Shown: in pieces, positions 1 to 5,863 of the stretch
Layout of the letters: every line of letters starts with the position of its first letter
Position numbering within the stretch: position 1 is the first letter of the stretch
Virus record (IMG/VR): IMGVR_UViG_3300018486_000129
Span: 1-5,863 of that record
DNA length: 5,863 bases
Strand: one strand, 5' to 3'
From: a virus
Lineage: Duplodnaviria > Heunggongvirae > Uroviricota > Caudoviricetes
Program-made: the position numbers and the translations under genes
The notes under the pieces: model-generated
What the model saw: only the letters and a program-made list of their open reading frames with translations
Databases searched by the model: none
Told to the model about the DNA's origin: nothing

Positions 1-158
1 ACAATCTCATTCAGGCACTCTTTGGCTGCCTCATCGTGACTTTTTCCGTATGCTTCATGGAGGACTTTCATCCTCATCATTGCTCCGTCACACATAATCG
101 AAAGCGCGTAAAGCACATCACTAATCGCCATTTCTTTTTTGGTGCTTGTCGAAGGCAT
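1..158 (-). CDS. Hypothetical protein, 5' part only (runs off the left edge of the window)
   Basis: Minus-strand frame open from ATG at 158..156 to position 1 (MPSTSTKKEMAISDVLYALSIMCDGAMMRMKVLHEAYGKSHDEAAKECLNEI...). GGAG at 170..167 lies 8 nt upstream of the ATG. Below the ORF-track length cut-off because it is truncated. Confidence 0.3.
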   Translation of the reverse strand, partial: MPSTSTKKEMAISDVLYALSIMCDGAMMRMKVLHEAYGKSHDEAAKECLNEI

Positions 159-183
159 CCCATGTTCTCCTTTGTCTGGATGT

Positions 184-209
184 AAAAAAGCCCCGGCAAT
201 TGCCGAGGC
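184..209 (-). terminator. Rho-independent terminator ending the 89-aa/66-aa operon
   Basis: Minus-strand RNA GCCUCGGC-AAUU-GCCGGGGC followed by UUUUUU (plus-strand A-run 184..189). 8-bp GC-rich stem with one U.G wobble that would be a C.A mismatch on the plus strand. Sits 24 nt downstream of the stop at 233. Confidence 0.55.
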
Positions 210-232
210 TCGTTGTTCGTTATCGTTACGGT

Positions 233-433
233 TTAATGCTCGCGTCGTCCGGCGACAACTTCGGATTTGTATTTCAGGTCGCCCAGCAAGAATTGCAGTT
301 TAAGCATCTTTGCCGCCGTGTAGTTTCCTGATTCCACAACCTCTTTCATGAGGTCATAAACGGCCGCAACATCATCAGCCAGGAACTCTTTGCGTTGCTG
401 CTCAGTCGCACGTTTGAAGGAAATACGCATCAC
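233..433 (-). CDS. Hypothetical small protein (65-66 aa), second gene of a coupled pair
   Basis: ORF-track frame 233..433. AGGAG at 445..441 precedes GTG 433 (7-nt spacer) and ATG 430 (10-nt spacer). The ATG overlaps the upstream TGA stop as TGATG. No family recognised. Confidence 0.5.
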   Translation of the reverse strand: MMRISFKRATEQQRKEFLADDVAAVYDLMKEVVESGNYTAAKMLKLQFLLGDLKYKSEVVAGRREH

Positions 434-699
434 TCATCATCTCCTGCCGCACATACAACCTCACAAAAAACATCAGCGGAATGTTTCTTTTTGAATGAAT
501 GGCGCTCAAAACCGCACTCAATATCAGGCGCAAAAACATCCACCACATACGGTCTTTCAGAATGTTTGTTTTCCCAACGATAAACCGTAGTGACGTTGAA
601 ATGTTTTAACGCTTCACGGAACTCAACGCTGCCCGTCAGGTTTTTTGAGGTCAGGTATTGCAGGAGGTTTTTTACTACTTCACGGTCTTGTACTTTCAT
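430..699 (-). CDS. Hypothetical protein (89 aa), first gene of a coupled pair
   Basis: ORF 430..699 with GGAG about 8 nt upstream of ATG 699. Stop overlaps the start of the 66-aa gene. No family recognised. Confidence 0.5.
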   Translation of the reverse strand: MKVQDREVVKNLLQYLTSKNLTGSVEFREALKHFNVTTVYRWENKHSERPYVVDVFAPDIECGFERHSFKKKHSADVFCEVVCAAGDDE

Positions 700-749
700 C
701 GGGTTATCTCCGGTTTAACCAGGGCGGGTATCGCTCGGTTTCGGGTATA

Positions 750-778
750 ACCATAGGAAATTTTTTCCCACCTGTAAA
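750..778 (-). promoter_or_regulatory. Candidate sigma70 promoter for the 89-aa/66-aa operon
   Basis: Minus strand reads TTTACA (778..773), 17-nt spacer, TATGGT (755..750), about 45 nt upstream of ATG 699, inside an AT-rich intergenic stretch. Hexamer match by eye only. Confidence 0.3.
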
Positions 779-794
779 GCACTTTTTATATAAA

Positions 795-808
795 TATATA
801 ATTATATA
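795..808. repeat. Perfect 14-bp AT-only palindrome TATATAATTATATA
   Basis: Read directly; it is its own reverse complement. Lies just after the methyltransferase stop and 16 bp upstream of the candidate -35. A related 12-bp copy is at 1930..1941. Confidence 0.6.
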
Positions 809-811
809 ATT

Positions 812-1399
812 CTATGCCACTTGCCAGAGAGCATCATGCAACTGGATACCTCCATTGCACTGGTTGCCCCAGCCATGCCAACCATCAGGTAAATCACCGC
901 GAGCAAACAGCTCAATACGAGGAACATCACCTAACAGCCTTACCAGCTTGTCACGAACCACATCAGGCTTCCGAGAATGCTCCAGACGAGGCGATGTAAA
1001 CGACTGAATGATCCCCGCATCAAGGCGGGTCGGCAATTTGCCTTTTACCGCAAACAAGCAATCTTCACTGTTTGCACGAGTCATATGCCCCATCCCCATC
1101 ACCAGCTTATCTGGTTGTCGGCTACCACATTTGTTCCATGTGAAGCCCTTCATGGTCATAAGCCTGAATCCCCATGCTTTCACCACCAGCAACGCTTCTT
1201 CTGGCTGAGTCGGAACCCACCACATGGCCAACAAACACGATTCAGGATTAGCAAGCTGCCAGACAGGAATACGAGCAATATCCTCAGCTTTCATCGTTGG
1301 ATACTTAAAACCAGCTCCACGATTCCCATCCTTACACTTATCTTTGTATTCCCAGGGGGGATCTGCATAAATCAGATTAAACAATGCAATTGCCTCCAT
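812..1399 (-). CDS. DNA N6-adenine methyltransferase, MT-A70-like (orphan, no restriction partner in window)
   Basis: 195-aa ORF with N-terminal ADPPWEY (DPPW catalytic motif of N6-adenine methyltransferases) and overall resemblance to phage Dam/MT-A70-like enzymes. GGAGG about 10 nt upstream of ATG 1399. Confidence 0.8.
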   Translation of the reverse strand: MEAIALFNLIYADPPWEYKDKCKDGNRGAGFKYPTMKAEDIARIPVWQLANPESCLLAMWWVPTQPEEALLVVKAWGFRLMTMKGFTWNKCGSRQPDKLVMGMGHMTRANSEDCLFAVKGKLPTRLDAGIIQSFTSPRLEHSRKPDVVRDKLVRLLGDVPRIELFARGDLPDGWHGWGNQCNGGIQLHDALWQVA

Positions 1400-1642
1400 G
1401 TTAGTTGTGCCTCCGGCGCTTATCTCCGGCAGTCATAACGCTGGCCAGCTCTACAGCAAACACAACGAAAAGGGCACTAACCAGACTGATTAATGCCCTT
1501 GCCTGTTGTGTGCCGGATATCGCCCGACAACGCTGTTTTGGTAACACGGCTACAGTTCCGTGCCGCTCCAGCTTTTACCCCTTTGCGGATAACAGGCCCT
1601 GCCTGTAACTTAGCCCCACGTTCGCCCGAAATGCGCACCAGG

Positions 1643-1697
1643 CACGCATAAAGATGAGCACGAAGAAGTAACTCCACCGAGCTTATCTTTATGTGTG
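1643..1697. repeat. Long inverted repeat (17-bp stem, 21-nt loop) just downstream of the tRNA
   Basis: 1643..1659 pairs with 1681..1697; core cataaagatgagc / gcttatctttatg. Two G.T positions (G.U in plus-sense RNA). No U-run on either side, so not a canonical intrinsic terminator. Confidence 0.5.
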
Positions 1698-1706
1698 AGA
1701 GTGAAT

Positions 1707-1782
1707 TGGTGGCCCCTACCGGATTTGAACCGATGACCGTGCGATTATGAGTCGCCTGCTCTAACCACTGAGCTAAGGGGCC
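1707..1782 (-). tRNA. tRNA with CAU anticodon, most like tRNA-Ile2 (lysidine, AUA-decoding)
   Basis: Minus strand reads GGCCCCTTAGCTCAGTGGTTAGAGCAGGCGACTCATAATCGCACGGTCATCGGTTCAAATCCGGTAGGGGCCACCA. 7-bp acceptor stem, D-arm GCTC/GAGC, anticodon loop CTCATAA, T-arm ATCGG/CCGGT with TTCAAAT loop, encoded CCA. Acceptor stem GGCCCCU and anticodon arm match host ileX-type tRNA as recalled from memory; elongator tRNA-Met is not excluded. Confidence 0.9.
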
Positions 1783-1808
1783 ATATTTGATTTGTTTGTC
1801 TGGTGTGG

Positions 1809-1859
1809 CGCCGCGCACGAAAATCCCAGCCAATAAATTCAGGATTTTTGGGCGCGGCG
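1809..1859. repeat. Long inverted repeat (18-bp stem, 15-nt loop) just upstream of the tRNA
   Basis: 1809..1826 pairs with 1842..1859 (cgccgcgcacgaaaatcc / ggatttttgggcgcggcg), 16 of 18 Watson-Crick plus one G.T. GC-rich base, A/T-rich top. No flanking U-run. Confidence 0.5.
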
Positions 1860-1929
1860 GCATATCAGACAAACATGGTTGATGCGTGCGCCCATGAGAA
1901 AAGCGCATAGAATGTTGTAACTATATATT

Positions 1930-1941
1930 TATATAATTATA
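1930..1941. repeat. 12-bp AT-only palindrome TATATAATTATA, second copy
   Basis: Perfect palindrome in the AT-rich gap between the Rz1 stop (1952) and the tRNA. Confidence 0.5.
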
Positions 1942-1951
1942 GAAATATATA

Positions 1952-2161
1952 TTACTTTCGGCAGTTGATTTCCCATGCCCTGTTATGAGCCAGAATATCT
2001 TTCTTTGTCTGGCGGTCCATAACATCGATGTCGTGATCAGTCAGGTAGATGGGCTTTACCCAATCACAGGCGGTATCAACCACCACCGGGACGCTTCCAC
2101 GACTCCCGCAGCTCGCGATCAACATCGTCATCAGCCATATGGTTAACACTCTGCTGTACAT
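1952..2161 (-). CDS. Rz1-like o-spanin (outer-membrane lipoprotein), overlapping the 3' end of Rz in another frame
   Basis: 69-aa ORF MYSRVLTIWLMTMLIASCGS... with a lipoprotein-type signal peptide and lipobox IASC. Strong RBS AGAGGTGGGG about 5 nt upstream of ATG 2161. Overlaps Rz by 86 nt. Not proline-rich, so the call is tentative. Confidence 0.55.
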   Translation of the reverse strand: MYSRVLTIWLMTMLIASCGSRGSVPVVVDTACDWVKPIYLTDHDIDVMDRQTKKDILAHNRAWEINCRK

Positions 2162-2354
2162 TCCCCACCTCTTTTATCACTTCTATACGCCGCTCCGCAG
2201 TGGCTTTTACGGCGGCTGCATTCTCATTAATGCGCTGCTTTTCAGCTTCATCTTCGGCCTTTTCTCGCCCCTTCATACGACCAAAACCAAACGCGCCAAA
2301 TGCAACCAATATAATTGTGCCAATAAATGACAAAACGGCCTTCAAACCAGTCAT
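2076..2354 (-). CDS. Rz-like i-spanin (N-terminal transmembrane helix plus charged coiled-coil domain)
   Basis: 92-aa ORF with hydrophobic N-terminus LKAVLSFIGTIILVAFGAFGFG followed by a charged, helix-prone region. ATG 2354 overlaps the endolysin stop as ATGA. Sits directly after the endolysin. Confidence 0.6.
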   Translation of the reverse strand: MTGLKAVLSFIGTIILVAFGAFGFGRMKGREKAEDEAEKQRINENAAAVKATAERRIEVIKEVGNVQQSVNHMADDDVDRELRESWKRPGGG

Positions 2355-2893
2355 ACCACCACTCGCTCTTTCATCCAGCCGTAGACAAACGACTCATTAG
2401 CCTCGCGCTTCTCCGCCAACTCCAGATAGCGTTCGCCCTGCGTACAGTTCAGCGACGTCAGCATCACCCGTTCGCCGTCTTTTCCCCGATTCCCAAGATA
2501 AGCACGCAGCGCATTAATGGTACGTGGACCGATTCGTCCGTCTGCATCCAAATCGGGATACAGCTTCCCACGCAGGTTGAACACATTCAGCCAGCGTTGA
2601 AGCATTTTTGACGCCACTGTTGGCCCCATGTTGACGCCCGTGTCGCACAGTTCTGCGGCAATATCCGGCGACAGAGTTGCTATCTGGTCAAAACGTGGGC
2701 CGTACCAGTAATCAGCCTCAAGGATTTCCAGAGCCTGTTCGCGAGTTAAATCGCGCATATCGCCACGGTATCCATGAGCACGGGCAGTGTTCTGAGTAAT
2801 GCCCCACTTTGTTGGGCCTCCCTTGTCGTCAGGGTGATCCACATAGCCGCCCTCTTTTCCAAGAATGCTGTTAAAAATCTCATCTTTGGTCAT
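2351..2893 (-). CDS. Endolysin, GH108-like N-terminal domain with PG_binding_3-like C-terminal domain
   Basis: 180-aa ORF. N-terminus ILGKEGGYVDHPDDKGGPTKWGIT matches the GH108 signature and the C-terminal half resembles the PG_binding_3 peptidoglycan-binding domain. No N-terminal hydrophobic SAR segment. Start overlaps the upstream gene by 14 nt. Confidence 0.85.
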   Translation of the reverse strand: MTKDEIFNSILGKEGGYVDHPDDKGGPTKWGITQNTARAHGYRGDMRDLTREQALEILEADYWYGPRFDQIATLSPDIAAELCDTGVNMGPTVASKMLQRWLNVFNLRGKLYPDLDADGRIGPRTINALRAYLGNRGKDGERVMLTSLNCTQGERYLELAEKREANESFVYGWMKERVVV

Positions 2894-3176
2894 GATTAAA
2901 CCCTAATGCGTCAACTATCCGCGCCAGATTGCCCCTGAAATACAGAACAACGATGCAGATAATCAGATTTCCAATAACCACCAGCCAGTGGGATTCTTGA
3001 TAAAGACCGAACACATAACGGAAGGGAACATTGGCGTATACAATGACGTAGATATAAGCCAGAAAGGAAACAAATGGACGATGCCTGGAGTCTTTCCGTC
3101 GATAAAGCATCAGCGCAATTACTATTACTGTGCAAAGCACCGCATTAATCAGTGCTGACGGGTCACTGCTTACCAT
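2880..3176 (-). CDS. Small three-helix membrane protein, possible second holin or antiholin
   Basis: Three hydrophobic helices in about 98 aa. Start chosen at ATG 3176 (MVSSDPSALI...) because GGAGGGGG lies 5-6 nt upstream; the ORF-track start at 3212 has no such RBS. Confidence 0.55.
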   Translation of the reverse strand: MVSSDPSALINAVLCTVIVIALMLYRRKDSRHRPFVSFLAYIYVIVYANVPFRYVFGLYQESHWLVVIGNLIICIVVLYFRGNLARIVDALGFNHDQR

Positions 3177-3558
3177 TTGAACCCCCTCCACGTAAGCGGG
3201 AAAGCATTCCAAAGATGCTACCGAGATCCTGGCTGTTTACGAACGTGAGGATTTTAATTGTCAATGCAGCCACAATAACCGCACCAAGCGCATCCAGAGG
3301 ACGATCGTTGTAGCTGGTCCATTTGGCAAGAAATGAGCCAACTAACGGCGCTCCAATCACTCCAACAATGAACGATGTAAAGAAATAGCCAATCAGCTTG
3401 AGACGGCTAATATTCACCGCTGTAGCAACATAGAAAACAGCGCCAGCAAATGCCCCGAATACAACGCCGTAATCAATACCAGTTGCAATACCAAAAACGC
3501 TGGCACCCATCAGGCCACCAGCAGCAACGGCCGTACCGGAAATTGGTTCTGCTGACAT
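3163..3558 (-). CDS. Putative holin (131 aa, about four transmembrane segments)
   Basis: Highly hydrophobic Gly/Ala-rich helices with a short charged C-terminal tail. First gene of the lysis cassette. RBS GAGGA 5 nt upstream of ATG 3558. Confidence 0.65.
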   Translation of the reverse strand: MSAEPISGTAVAAGGLMGASVFGIATGIDYGVVFGAFAGAVFYVATAVNISRLKLIGYFFTSFIVGVIGAPLVGSFLAKWTSYNDRPLDALGAVIVAALTIKILTFVNSQDLGSIFGMLSRLRGGGSNGKQ

Positions 3559-3571
3559 TGAAATCCTCGTT

Positions 3572-3604
3572 AAAAAAAAAGCCCCGCCGAAAAAGGCAGG
3601 GCTT
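3572..3604 (-). terminator. Rho-independent terminator directly upstream of the holin RBS (tR'-like)
   Basis: Minus-strand RNA AAGCCCUGCC-UUUUUC-GGCGGGGCUU followed by nine U (plus-strand A-run 3572..3580). Stem has one U.G wobble that would be a C.A mismatch on the plus strand. Confidence 0.65.
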
Positions 3605-3937
3605 CATAAAGCAACAAATTACGCGGTAATCGCTTAACGCAGTTTTACTACGTTAAATGAAACACTACACCCAGTTACCACCTAAAACAAGGCTTCCCCA
3701 TAAAAAAACCTTCATTCTGTGGTTAACTGATCAATAAAAAAACAATACTCAACTTTTTACCAACCGAACATCCCGACCAGGACTTCCATAATATTCGCCG
3801 ATATGCCACTGCTTAAGTTGAGTAATCTTCTCCAACTTAACGCCCATAGAGTCCAGTTTCTGCCATGTTTTCGGTTGTATGTGCTTCATTACCCGCTCTG
3901 AATATCTGAATACTGCTCGTAAGCGCATGGCTTCTCA
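3605..3937 (-). promoter_or_regulatory. Non-coding leader upstream of the lysis cassette; candidate late promoter and short terminated leader RNA
   Basis: About 335 bp with no ORF of 60 aa or more on the minus strand, AT-rich in places, ending in the terminator. No confident -35/-10 pair could be assigned by eye. Confidence 0.35.
3813..3840. repeat. Inverted repeat TTAAGTTG-N12-CAACTTAA in the leader
   Basis: Perfect 8-bp arms at 3813..3820 and 3833..3840 separated by 12 bp. No adjacent U-run. Confidence 0.4.
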
Positions 3938-4129
3938 CTACAGCTTATATAAGTGGTTTTTCCAGCGGTTTTGCGCCGCGCTGCGCTTATCTTTGACTCC
4001 CTCTCTGGCAATTCCAAAAAATGAGAACAACACCACACGACGATTGCTAACTCTCAACCACTGGCTGGGATAGCAAAGCCTGTATACTCGCGAAATAATC
4101 ATCCTGGCTTTACGATTGTTGGTTGCCAT
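3938..4129 (-). CDS. Small basic hypothetical protein (63 aa)
   Basis: Strong RBS AGGAG 6 nt upstream of ATG 4129, which lies 1 nt after the upstream TGA stop. Arg/Lys-rich. No family recognised; a plus-strand ORF overlaps it, so coding status is uncertain. Confidence 0.4.
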   Translation of the reverse strand: MATNNRKARMIISRVYRLCYPSQWLRVSNRRVVLFSFFGIAREGVKDKRSAAQNRWKNHLYKL

Positions 4130-4130
4130 A

Positions 4131-4802
4131 TCACTCTCCTTTTATGCGAATGCCAGCGGCGCGCTCGGCTTCACTTTGTTCCCAAAACCACTTATGAAGC
4201 TCCATGAGCTTTTCGTCAATCGGTGCATATTTGCGATTAAAGTAGGCCTGAGCATCTTTCTCAGATTCGTCCGGCAATTCGCCTGGGCCAAACAGTGTGT
4301 TATAAATCCATGCCAGTCCGCTCTTAGCGTCGCCAGTTGCCTGCCATTCGATAATCGCAGCCTGCATGACAAGAATGTTTTTCCCGATTAATAGGTCCAG
4401 TTCTTTGAACCGGTTGCGGATGTATGCATTCTCGCTTTGTAATTTTGCGTTGCGCTTCTCTGCGGCTTCCAGCTCAACACGCAGCTTCCCTACCGTTAGC
4501 GCAATATCCTCGTTCTCCTGGTCACGGCTTTTGATGTATTGCAGGTTTCTTTCCCGTTCATCCAGCAGTGCCTGCACTACTTCAGGGTTGAAAGCTGCGA
4601 TATAACGAGCGTTGTTCTCTGCGTTTTTCTGTTCGTCGAATCCAGGCCAGTCGACAATATCTCCGTGATGATTATCTCCTGGTGTGTGCACAGCGTACGT
4701 GCCGTGTTTGCCCGGCGAAATAAATGCGACCCATTCGCCCTGTGTTGCCTGTTTTGCTATCTCACGTAGCGCCTGATAGTTAATTGCTGTGCTGTTAGTC
4801 AT
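4131..4802 (-). CDS. Ead/Ea22-like family protein (about 223 aa)
   Basis: Start set at ATG 4802 (MTNSTAINYQALREIAKQATQGEWVAF...), which has GGAGG 6 nt upstream and matches the conserved Ead/Ea22-like N-terminal motif as recalled from memory. The ORF-track start at 4847 lies inside the upstream gene. Central coiled-coil-like region. Confidence 0.6.
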   Translation of the reverse strand: MTNSTAINYQALREIAKQATQGEWVAFISPGKHGTYAVHTPGDNHHGDIVDWPGFDEQKNAENNARYIAAFNPEVVQALLDERERNLQYIKSRDQENEDIALTVGKLRVELEAAEKRNAKLQSENAYIRNRFKELDLLIGKNILVMQAAIIEWQATGDAKSGLAWIYNTLFGPGELPDESEKDAQAYFNRKYAPIDEKLMELHKWFWEQSEAERAAGIRIKGE

Positions 4803-5139
4803 TCCAGGCCTCCAGCTCGTTCTGAATCTCCTCGTCAACCTCGTCATTGGTGGCGTCTTCGTTCAGATGGTCGCGCGCCTCTTTGAGATACTGTTCACGG
4901 CGTTCGTGGTACCAGGCTGAGAACTCCGGCGACCATCCTCGATTAGCCCCCTGAAAATCTACCATCGCATTATCCTCGGCCATACGCTCGACCATGCAAT
5001 CCGCGGTGTTCAGTGCAACCTCACGGATGTACCCCCGCAGGTCGCGCTTACGCCAATACGGGCTATATTTTGAGTCGCAGCGGCCTTTAAATTCGACGGT
5101 CCAGCGACGGATGCAGCGTGCGTTAAGTGATTTGCTCAT
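4795..5139 (-). CDS. Hypothetical protein (114 aa), basic Cys-containing N-terminus and acidic C-terminal tail
   Basis: RBS AGGAAG 7 nt upstream of ATG 5139. Stop overlaps the Ea22-like start by 8 nt. No family recognised. Confidence 0.55.
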   Translation of the reverse strand: MSKSLNARCIRRWTVEFKGRCDSKYSPYWRKRDLRGYIREVALNTADCMVERMAEDNAMVDFQGANRGWSPEFSAWYHERREQYLKEARDHLNEDATNDEVDEEIQNELEAWND

Positions 5140-5141
5140 AG

Positions 5142-5810
5142 TTATGCTTCCTGAATACGCTTAAACTCAATTACCCATACCCACGGGTTAGATAGCCAGT
5201 TCTCTTGCCCGTAAATACCGCGCCAGATATCACCAAAGCCAACGCGATAAACAGCTTCCGGCGGTGTAATCTTGTACGTCGCCGGAGATGCGCCTTCCGC
5301 TTTAGCATCTGCCTCGCTCATGTCATGCAGCCGTTCCACACGCACGTCGGTAATTTCCAACAGAATGCGTGATGCCCATCGCGGCATGTGAATTGATGGA
5401 CGCCACCCACCATCAAACTTTTCATTCACAGTGTGAGGTTTCCAGTCGGCATCATCGGGTATCGACCACAAGCCGTAATCACCAGGCTTTTGCTCACAAC
5501 TGGCCCGATAAATCCTTGCTGCGTTCTTCTCATCGCCACGACAAAGGTTGTCGTTCCAGTCCACACTGCAACCATCCTCATTGCCTAATATCGCCCACGC
5601 CTCGCGGACCCATATGCGATCACCAACGTTACCGAACGGGCATAAACCATGTTCCGGTGCATCCATAACGTGGGTATAGACACCATTGCGTTTCTTTGTC
5701 GGTTTACGGATAACCAGGCAGTTATCGGCCCTGACATTTTTTACAGGTCGGCGAGTCTGCGTTTTCCTTCCTTCGAGGATGGCCCGGACCATCTCATCGT
5801 TAAAAATCAT
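5142..5810 (-). CDS. ASCH-domain (PUA-like fold) protein, about 222 aa
   Basis: Start set at ATG 5810 (MIFNDEMVRAILEGRKTQTRRPV...) because the ORF-track start at 5837 is a GTG whose first codons contain the likely RBS. N-terminal GRKTQTRR...GDRIWVRE and C-terminal VWVIEFKRI resemble the ASCH signature (compare E. coli YqfB, from memory). Confidence 0.65.
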   Translation of the reverse strand: MIFNDEMVRAILEGRKTQTRRPVKNVRADNCLVIRKPTKKRNGVYTHVMDAPEHGLCPFGNVGDRIWVREAWAILGNEDGCSVDWNDNLCRGDEKNAARIYRASCEQKPGDYGLWSIPDDADWKPHTVNEKFDGGWRPSIHMPRWASRILLEITDVRVERLHDMSEADAKAEGASPATYKITPPEAVYRVGFGDIWRGIYGQENWLSNPWVWVIEFKRIQEA

Positions 5811-5863
5811 GCCGCGCTCTTTCACTCTCCCTCCCACGTTTTCAGACTTTCACCACAAAACGG

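Follow-up and report, generated by a model that had tools for sequence, protein, structure and literature searches.

The window, which is the whole stretch of 5,863 nt analysed here, carries a single tRNA gene that lies downstream of the two spanin genes and is followed by a gene for an MT-A70 family DNA methyltransferase (Table 1). Every credible gene in the window is on the minus strand, as is the tRNA. ARAGORN places the CAT anticodon at position 34, and the Rfam model RF00005 matches the gene over its full length with 67 bits (gathering score 29, E=1.9e-13), so that both programs describe a canonical cloverleaf with a CAU anticodon. The sole non-standard pair in the Rfam match is 27:43. 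The sequence-only reading had put a CAU tRNA at these coordinates, between Rz1 and a methyltransferase. The tRNA and both neighbours stand, the former on the minus strand and the latter through PHROG Rz-like spanin matches and the MT-A70 domain.

Table 1. Features in and around the lysis-tRNA-methyltransferase region, in window coordinates and in the order of transcription
Feature	Position	Strand	Basis and remarks
Two holin genes	3558..3163 and ~3176/3212..2880	minus	Pfam Phage_holin_8 and Phage_holin_3_7; PHROG holin families
Endolysin gene (Glyco_hydro_108 + PG_binding_3)	2893..2351	minus	Pfam PF05838, PF09374
i-spanin gene (Rz-like)	2354..2076	minus	phrog_1026, E=1.2e-31
o-spanin gene, which overlaps that of the i-spanin and encodes an Rz1-like lipoprotein with a LIASC lipobox	2161..1952	minus	phrog_1275 Rz-like spanin, E=3.5e-33
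AT-rich palindromic box, immediately behind the stop codon of the o-spanin gene	1905..1951		Repeats D1, I2, I3, I8
Long hairpin of 83 nt upstream of the tRNA, with 10 nt between its end and the tRNA	1793..1875	minus	Inverted repeat I1, 34-nt arms; -40.3 kcal/mol, z=-6.1
Indel segment of 158 nt (tRNA, 10-nt leader, downstream hairpin)	1636..1793		blastn breakpoints, four-way alignment
tRNA-Ile2-type gene, anticodon CAU, 76 nt, encoded 3' CCA	1707..1782	minus	ARAGORN, Rfam, ileX alignment, RefSeq
Hairpin 9 nt past the tRNA 3' end, within the indel	1643..1697	minus	Inverted repeat I5; -24.3 kcal/mol, z=-4.6
Intrinsic terminator-like hairpin with U-rich tail	1470..1500	minus	Terminator scan; -26.7 kcal/mol, z=-7.3
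MT-A70 family DNA methyltransferase gene, next gene downstream of the tRNA	1399..812	minus	Pfam PF05063; phrog_359, E=1e-102

Upstream of the first holin gene, the stretch 3573-3728 (minus strand) resembles GcvB in Rfam, with 36.3 bits and E=2e-5, which is below the gathering score of 42. This stretch ends in a strong GC hairpin followed by a U-run at ~3573-3600, and the match may be just a terminator with U-rich sequence.

The tRNA was aligned with host and phage tRNAs bearing the same anticodon. It is identical to K-12 ileX at 68 of 76 positions (89.5%), to K-12 ileY at 66 of 76, and to ileZ of an Stx2a phage at 64 of 76. The identity falls to 57 of 77 (74%) with elongator metT, the 20 differences including positions 4, 5, 68, 69 and 27-30/40-43, and to 47 of 77 with initiator metZ. 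Positions 1-42 and 66-76 are the same as in ileX, and thereby both strands of the acceptor stem, the D-arm, the anticodon loop, and all but one of the five pairs in the anticodon stem. The tRNA departs from ileX at eight positions (A43T, C44T, A49G, T50C, C51T, A59G, G63A, and T65C, window base first), all of which fall within positions 43-44 and the T-arm.

The change at position 43 should be noted, since it turns the host G27.U43 pair into a G27/A43 mismatch, so that the anticodon arm is not wholly common to the host tRNA. The anticodon loop (32-38) and the stem pairs 28:42 to 31:39 are those of ileX, and trnI of phage P1 has the same change at 27:43. Hence the sequence-only reading, which gave the tRNA the acceptor stem and anticodon arm of host tRNA-Ile2 together with a different T-arm and variable loop, is right about the acceptor stem and about the location of the differences, goes too far for the anticodon arm, and had omitted the identical D-arm. 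Its description of a divergent phage copy rather than flanking host DNA agrees with the alignment, by which the gene is a mobile-element copy of the ileX type.

In the T-stem, pair 49:65 is G-C in ileX and A-U in the window tRNA, pair 51:63 is U-A in ileX and C-G in the window tRNA, and pair 50:64 of the window tRNA is U.G. Because both sides of 49:65 and 51:63 are changed together, the T-arm is remodelled, not degraded. The T-arm at tRNA positions 50-64 (window 1719-1733; UCGG-UUCAAAU-CCGG) is also that of E. coli initiator tRNA-fMet, save for the closing pair 49:65; this match is probably a coincidence, since T-arm diversity is limited.

For the recognition by IleRS, the identity set of tRNA-Ile1 was reportedly defined by Nureki et al. 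in 1994 as A73, C4:G69, U12:A23, C29:G41, A37, and A38, and in the alignment all of these positions are as in ileX. The pairs C4:G69 and C5:G68 are the dominant determinants by which E. coli TilS distinguishes tRNA-Ile2 from tRNA-Met (Ikeuchi 2005, summarised in PMC12514573 and PMC11947777), and a heterologous tRNA-Ile2 of B. cenocepacia is efficiently modified by E. coli TilS (PMC12514573; PMC11947777). Both pairs are present in the window tRNA, for which the sequence-only reading had proposed a check of the TilS identity elements; metT has U4:A69 and A5:U68, and neither this acceptor stem of the metT/metU type nor the corresponding anticodon stem is found in the window tRNA. In its acceptor stem (ileX), D-arm, anticodon loop, and TilS determinants, the window tRNA is like the chromosomal ileX and ileY, the lysidine-dependent AUA readers of E. 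coli. It differs from them in A43 with the G27/A43 mismatch, C44, three altered T-stem pairs, and T-loop position 59, and in being carried by a phage-plasmid, not by the chromosome.

A reading as elongator tRNA-Met, with the CAU anticodon taken at face value, has been applied to the same sequence. [quoted passage not shown] However, ARAGORN reads its label from the anticodon alone and gives the genuine K-12 ileX the same label, so that its Met call is uninformative. The TilS determinants, the absence of the metT pairs, and the greater identity to ileX than to metT all stand against it, RefSeq labels the identical sequence as tRNA-Ile in 30 of the 30 matches listed, and the P1 record says Ile for its trnI. 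The elongator, which the sequence-only reading had itself named as an outcome that would overturn it, is already contradicted at the sequence level and is barely credible. The gene is almost certainly of the tRNA-Ile2 type, and the label in OR545053-OR545055 should, on these features, be tRNA-Ile (CAU, Ile2 type).

The carrier of the gene is a ~48-kb phage-plasmid of E. coli and its relatives. Positions 1-3951 of the window are 98.2% identical to the E. coli plasmid NZ_CP024865, a circular element of 48.5 kb with genes for RepA, ParA, three ParB-like products, and, beside a helix-turn-helix gene, a toxin of the RelE type. It also encodes a terminase, a portal, a head of the lambda type, and a contractile tail of the P2 type. 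The annotation of NZ_CP024865 contains no integrase. The Stx-type prophage in which the sequence-only reading had framed the tRNA is therefore replaced by an element with plasmid replication and partition genes, a lambda-like head, and a P2-like tail. On the minus strand of the whole plasmid the order is early genes, lysis genes, tRNA, methyltransferase, ParB-like genes, terminase, head, and tail.

Of 5,426 complete E. coli genomes, 70 contain a 311-nt context of the tRNA, and the best 30 of these 70 matches all fall in records of 31-52 kb, which is the size range of such plasmids. PLSDB contains 57 plasmids with a match to 80% or more of window 700-2400. Three phages that infect Yersinia pestis (vB_YpM_39, 41, and 44) show 96-98% identity across most of the window, and the family thus has members in Escherichia, Klebsiella, and Shigella and also as Yersinia-infecting virions. 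Our literature search found no paper on vB_YpM_39/41/44 and no published name for the phage-plasmid family. Two candidate relatives were rejected: pSLy3 is an unrelated element of the SSU5 supergroup, and the paper on Yersinia phage HQ103 concerns an unrelated 32-kb P2-like phage. The early region of the window (3951-5832) is a mosaic, with stretches 91-96% identical to Ea22-like genes of Stx phages and to the pmgT region of P1-like phages. This mosaicism shows exchange among the phage-plasmid, lambdoid phages, and P1.

Two Salmonella relatives, NZ_CP044178 and CP053324, which are plasmids of the same family, delimit the tRNA segment. Both align to window 672-1635 and 1794-1951 and not to 1636-1793 (breakpoints by blastn from NZ_CP044178), and in both the segment 1636-1793 is replaced by 376 unrelated nt. 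ARAGORN finds no tRNA in either relative. Since both flanks match and the middle does not, the tRNA, its leader, and the small hairpin behind it together form a 158-nt indel. The 376-nt replacement (NZ_CP044178 5962-6337 and the matching stretch of CP053324) is common to the two relatives, and it contains no tRNA, no Rfam match, and only short ORFs.

The 83-nt hairpin lies between the lysis cassette and the tRNA and has no U-tail. Both of its arms co-vary in the S. salamae plasmid, where GGTGACACGCCC and GGGCGTGTCACC are exact reverse complements. Because this hairpin is kept in relatives without the tRNA, it is not specific to the tRNA. The AT-rich box at 1905-1951 is likewise present in the Salmonella relatives that have no tRNA. 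With a core like TTTATATAATTATATAAA, the box occurs in at least six copies in the 48.5-kb phage-plasmid, mostly just upstream of gene starts (window 786-817 and 1905-1951; L001 7202-7233, 8321-8352, 13885-13915, 15102-15129, 18864-18887, and 24002-24035). In three places the box belongs to a block of ~110 nt (window 700-809) that directly precedes a gene start and contains a promoter-like site TTTACA-17-TATGGT. The box is probably a repeated operator or promoter element. A 32-nt inverted repeat formed by two of its copies (786-817/1905-1936) brackets the tRNA and the methyltransferase gene, and could be taken for the ends of a transposon or an invertible cassette; we rejected this reading because the box recurs at least six times, mostly upstream of gene starts. 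In a promoter scan, the stretch from the box to the tRNA contained no promoter of the sigma-70 consensus type.

The terminator-like hairpin follows the tRNA at a distance of ~205 nt and precedes the start of the methyltransferase gene by ~70 nt. Its stem has two compensatory pairs in the Salmonella relatives, which retain the same TTTTCGTTGTGT tail. The adjoining non-coding block 1502-1605 is 97/104 (93%) identical to the Salmonella copy, as compared with 74.5% for the adjacent methyltransferase coding region, and it is restricted to this phage-plasmid family (61 PLSDB plasmids). Compensatory pairs within the block and the terminator are found in the terminator stem only, the sequences being too similar to test any other structure. 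No Rfam family reaches its threshold in the block downstream of the tRNA, where a weak rydB-like match scores 27 bits against a gathering score of 50. The block could be a small RNA, a leader of the methyltransferase gene, or a protein-binding site.

The position of the tRNA had been called unusual in the sequence-only reading, by comparison with Stx-type phages, whose ileZ/arg tRNAs lie upstream of the lysis genes. The statement on Stx phages is correct for the Stx2a phage checked, in which ileZ-argN-argO lie between Q and stx. The position itself is the same in 57 of the 57 PLSDB members described above; it is constant within the E. coli branch of the family, and we see nothing unusual in it. 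Stx phage, P1, and the present element have three different architectures, and a different tRNA slot is therefore to be expected in each. As lysis genes, tRNA, methyltransferase, terminase, head, and tail are transcribed in this order, the tRNA still precedes the morphogenesis genes. In this respect it resembles ileZ of the Stx phage, another CAU tRNA of the Ile2 type on a phage; both stand at the head of the late region, before the structural genes. The Stx-phage ileZ has a host-type T-stem, however, is clustered with two tRNA-Arg genes in the Q-stx interval, and is part of a lambdoid phage that integrates rather than of a phage-plasmid. No three-tRNA cluster of the Stx type between Q and stx/lysis genes is present here; a single tRNA lies downstream of the spanins of a RepA/ParA phage-plasmid. 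A literature search on ileZ/argN/argO found nothing.

A closer relative is found in phage P1. The P1 record AF234172 annotates trnI at 70933-71008, between tciC and ban, as 'tRNA-ile2 (CAT) gene; 89 pct identical to ileX'. The window tRNA and P1 trnI are identical at 72 of 76 positions, and they have in common the derived changes A43, C44, A49:U65, and C51:G63, that is, all changes from ileX outside positions 50 and 59. The anticodon is the same, and so is the acceptor stem save for U6 in P1. Judged by these common derived changes, the window tRNA is a member of the P1 trnI lineage, which the sequence-only reading had missed and which makes it an ordinary, already-known kind of phage tRNA. The lineage is phage-borne, has been known since the P1 annotation, and is common to two unrelated phage-plasmid families.

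The surroundings differ. In P1, trnI lies near tRNA-Asn and tRNA-Thr, whereas the window tRNA stands alone between the spanin genes and the MT-A70 gene. The homology to the P1 type ends within ~4 nt of the mature tRNA ends, and the contexts are unrelated: in PLSDB, the tRNA with ~4 nt per side and nothing else matches P1-like plasmids at ~95%. The window tRNA agrees at 74/76 to 76/76 positions with copies on P1-like plasmids and on contigs of IMG/VR, with 74/76 in a P1-like plasmid and 76/76 in IMG/VR contig L021, which has a P1-type tRNA cluster (Ile, Ser, Thr, Arg) and unrelated flanks. In the P1-type clusters of L003 (4005-5153), L015, and L021, the slot beside tRNA-Thr is occupied by tRNA-Asn(GUU) or tRNA-Arg(UCU), depending on the element, and there is an extra tRNA-Ser(UGA) that is not in the P1 stretch AF234172 68604-71785. 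Our literature search for P1 trnI returned only mitochondrial papers.

The 45-nt 3' half of the tRNA and a relaxed pattern have no match in 185,579 species-representative genomes, and they are present in 10 IMG/VR contigs. As both scans of the genomes were empty, no chromosomal donor can be named. CAU tRNAs are also carried by many other enterobacterial phages, with 82-90% identity to the window tRNA. Nine of the 13 copies collected are identical to that of the window. Among the variants, C6U (U.G67), C13U (U.G22), and U50C (C-G64) retain pairing, and A26U affects an unpaired position. In one variant group (L024), the tRNA has one change in 76 nt, as against 94.7% identity in its 241-nt downstream block. 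The variant pattern across the 13 copies is indicative of purifying selection.

AUA accounts for 206 of the 13,648 codons in the 68 annotated CDS of NZ_CP024865 (15.1 per 1000; 24% of the Ile codons), compared with 4.9 per 1000 codons in E. coli (PMC12514573). The structural genes reach 20.9 per 1000 against 9.4 in the other genes (Fisher p=3e-8), and the tail module taken separately reaches 22.8. Relative to E. coli, AUA is enriched ~3-fold in the element as a whole and ~4-fold when its structural genes are taken by themselves; with the same ORF method applied to both, a 50-kb control from K-12 gives 3.35 and NZ_CP024865 gives 16.0 per 1000. Such a pattern is in line with a general rule (PMC4032129) by which the tRNAs of a phage correspond to codons that it uses in excess and that its host underuses. 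The enrichment is, however, not specific to AUA. AGA (9.9), AGG (5.2), CTA (6.1 per 1000), and GGA are also enriched in NZ_CP024865 (44.7% GC), which has no matching tRNAs aboard, and AUA still reaches 12.7 per 1000 in a Salmonella relative without the tRNA. The suggestion of the sequence-only reading that the tRNA could supply AUA decoding for late genes thus remains plausible: the AUA comparison that it called for shows the enrichment, and the enriched AGA/AGG and the AUA-rich relatives weaken the connection to the tRNA. Since the two Salmonella relatives remain AUA-rich without it, the tRNA is dispensable for this phage type; it is not required by the phage-plasmid and is at most helpful.

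Taken together, the gene is likely to be a functional tRNA-Ile2 gene of the P1 trnI lineage, carried by a temperate phage-plasmid, and the codon usage and gene order suggest that it probably works as an AUA-decoding supplement for the late genes. Because the tRNA is located past the last stop codon of the lysis cassette and before the conserved terminator, it is probably co-transcribed with the lysis genes or just after them, and before the terminase, head, and tail genes, which are on the same strand; we infer this timing from the gene order alone. RNase P and 3' exonucleases would then free the 76-nt tRNA, in which the CCA is already encoded. Host TilS would convert C34 into lysidine, for which C4:G69, C5:G68, and the ileX-type anticodon loop are in place, and IleRS would charge the product with isoleucine; the G27/A43 mismatch may bear on the handling by either enzyme. 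The phage would thereby gain extra decoding capacity for AUA, which is rare in the host and enriched in the element.

The tRNA may instead be functional with a value other than codon supply, either replacing or outlasting host tRNA-Ile2 that has been depleted, cleaved, or under-modified during infection, or widening the host range (e.g. to Yersinia or Klebsiella); in that case, the adaptive changes would be those in the remodelled T-arm and at position 43. The codon-supply evidence is only moderately specific, the lineage was found on mobile elements only in the scans described above, an identical gene occurs in two unrelated phage-plasmid families, and the members range over Escherichia, Klebsiella, Shigella, and Yersinia-infecting virions, all of which would suit such a value. 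However, the anticodon loop and stem positions 28-42 are those of the host and give no sign of escape from an anticodon-loop nuclease, and we know of no nuclease that targets tRNA-Ile2. Since tRNAs hardly vary at the T-stem pairs 52:62 and 53:61, variation is necessarily limited to pairs 49-51 and needs no special explanation. We consider this alternative unlikely. A more novel reading, which we consider very unlikely, is that the gene is a phage-exclusive mobile allele of tRNA-Ile2 that is passed on without its flanks from one phage-plasmid family to another, unrelated one, and whose fixed changes (G27/A43, C44, and three T-stem pairs) could be adaptive. If this were true, the tRNA would do more than duplicate ileX: its handling by EF-Tu or TilS might be altered, or it might resist an undiscovered activity of the host or of a competitor against tRNA-Ile2.

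The tRNA could also have no role for the phage, either as a neutral passenger or because it was left behind by recombination at a tRNA gene, for example as the remnant of an attachment site. That the 158-nt slot is variable and filled by other DNA in the Salmonella relatives, which manage without the tRNA, is in keeping with such a passenger. On the other hand, the tRNA is complete and well folding rather than a 3' fragment, all stem changes among the copies keep pairing, and the tRNA of the variant group is more strictly conserved than its surroundings, so that we regard a passenger as quite unlikely. The attachment site (attP/attB) was rejected for the completeness of the tRNA, the lack of an annotated integrase on NZ_CP024865, and the phage genes on both sides.

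Supplementary AUA decoding by a tRNA of the P1 trnI lineage is thus the reading that we prefer, and it opens no new question: the gene is already known in that RefSeq has it as tRNA-Ile and P1 trnI is closely related to it. The main value of the finding is for annotation hygiene, since the same sequence is called tRNA-Met in the GenBank records of the Yersinia phages and by ARAGORN, and tRNA-Ile in RefSeq, and the sequence supports the Ile2 reading. For the biology of the family, the gene provides a tidy example of a rare-codon tRNA on a temperate phage-plasmid with AUA-rich structural genes, and of a single tRNA gene that is common to two unrelated phage-plasmid families.
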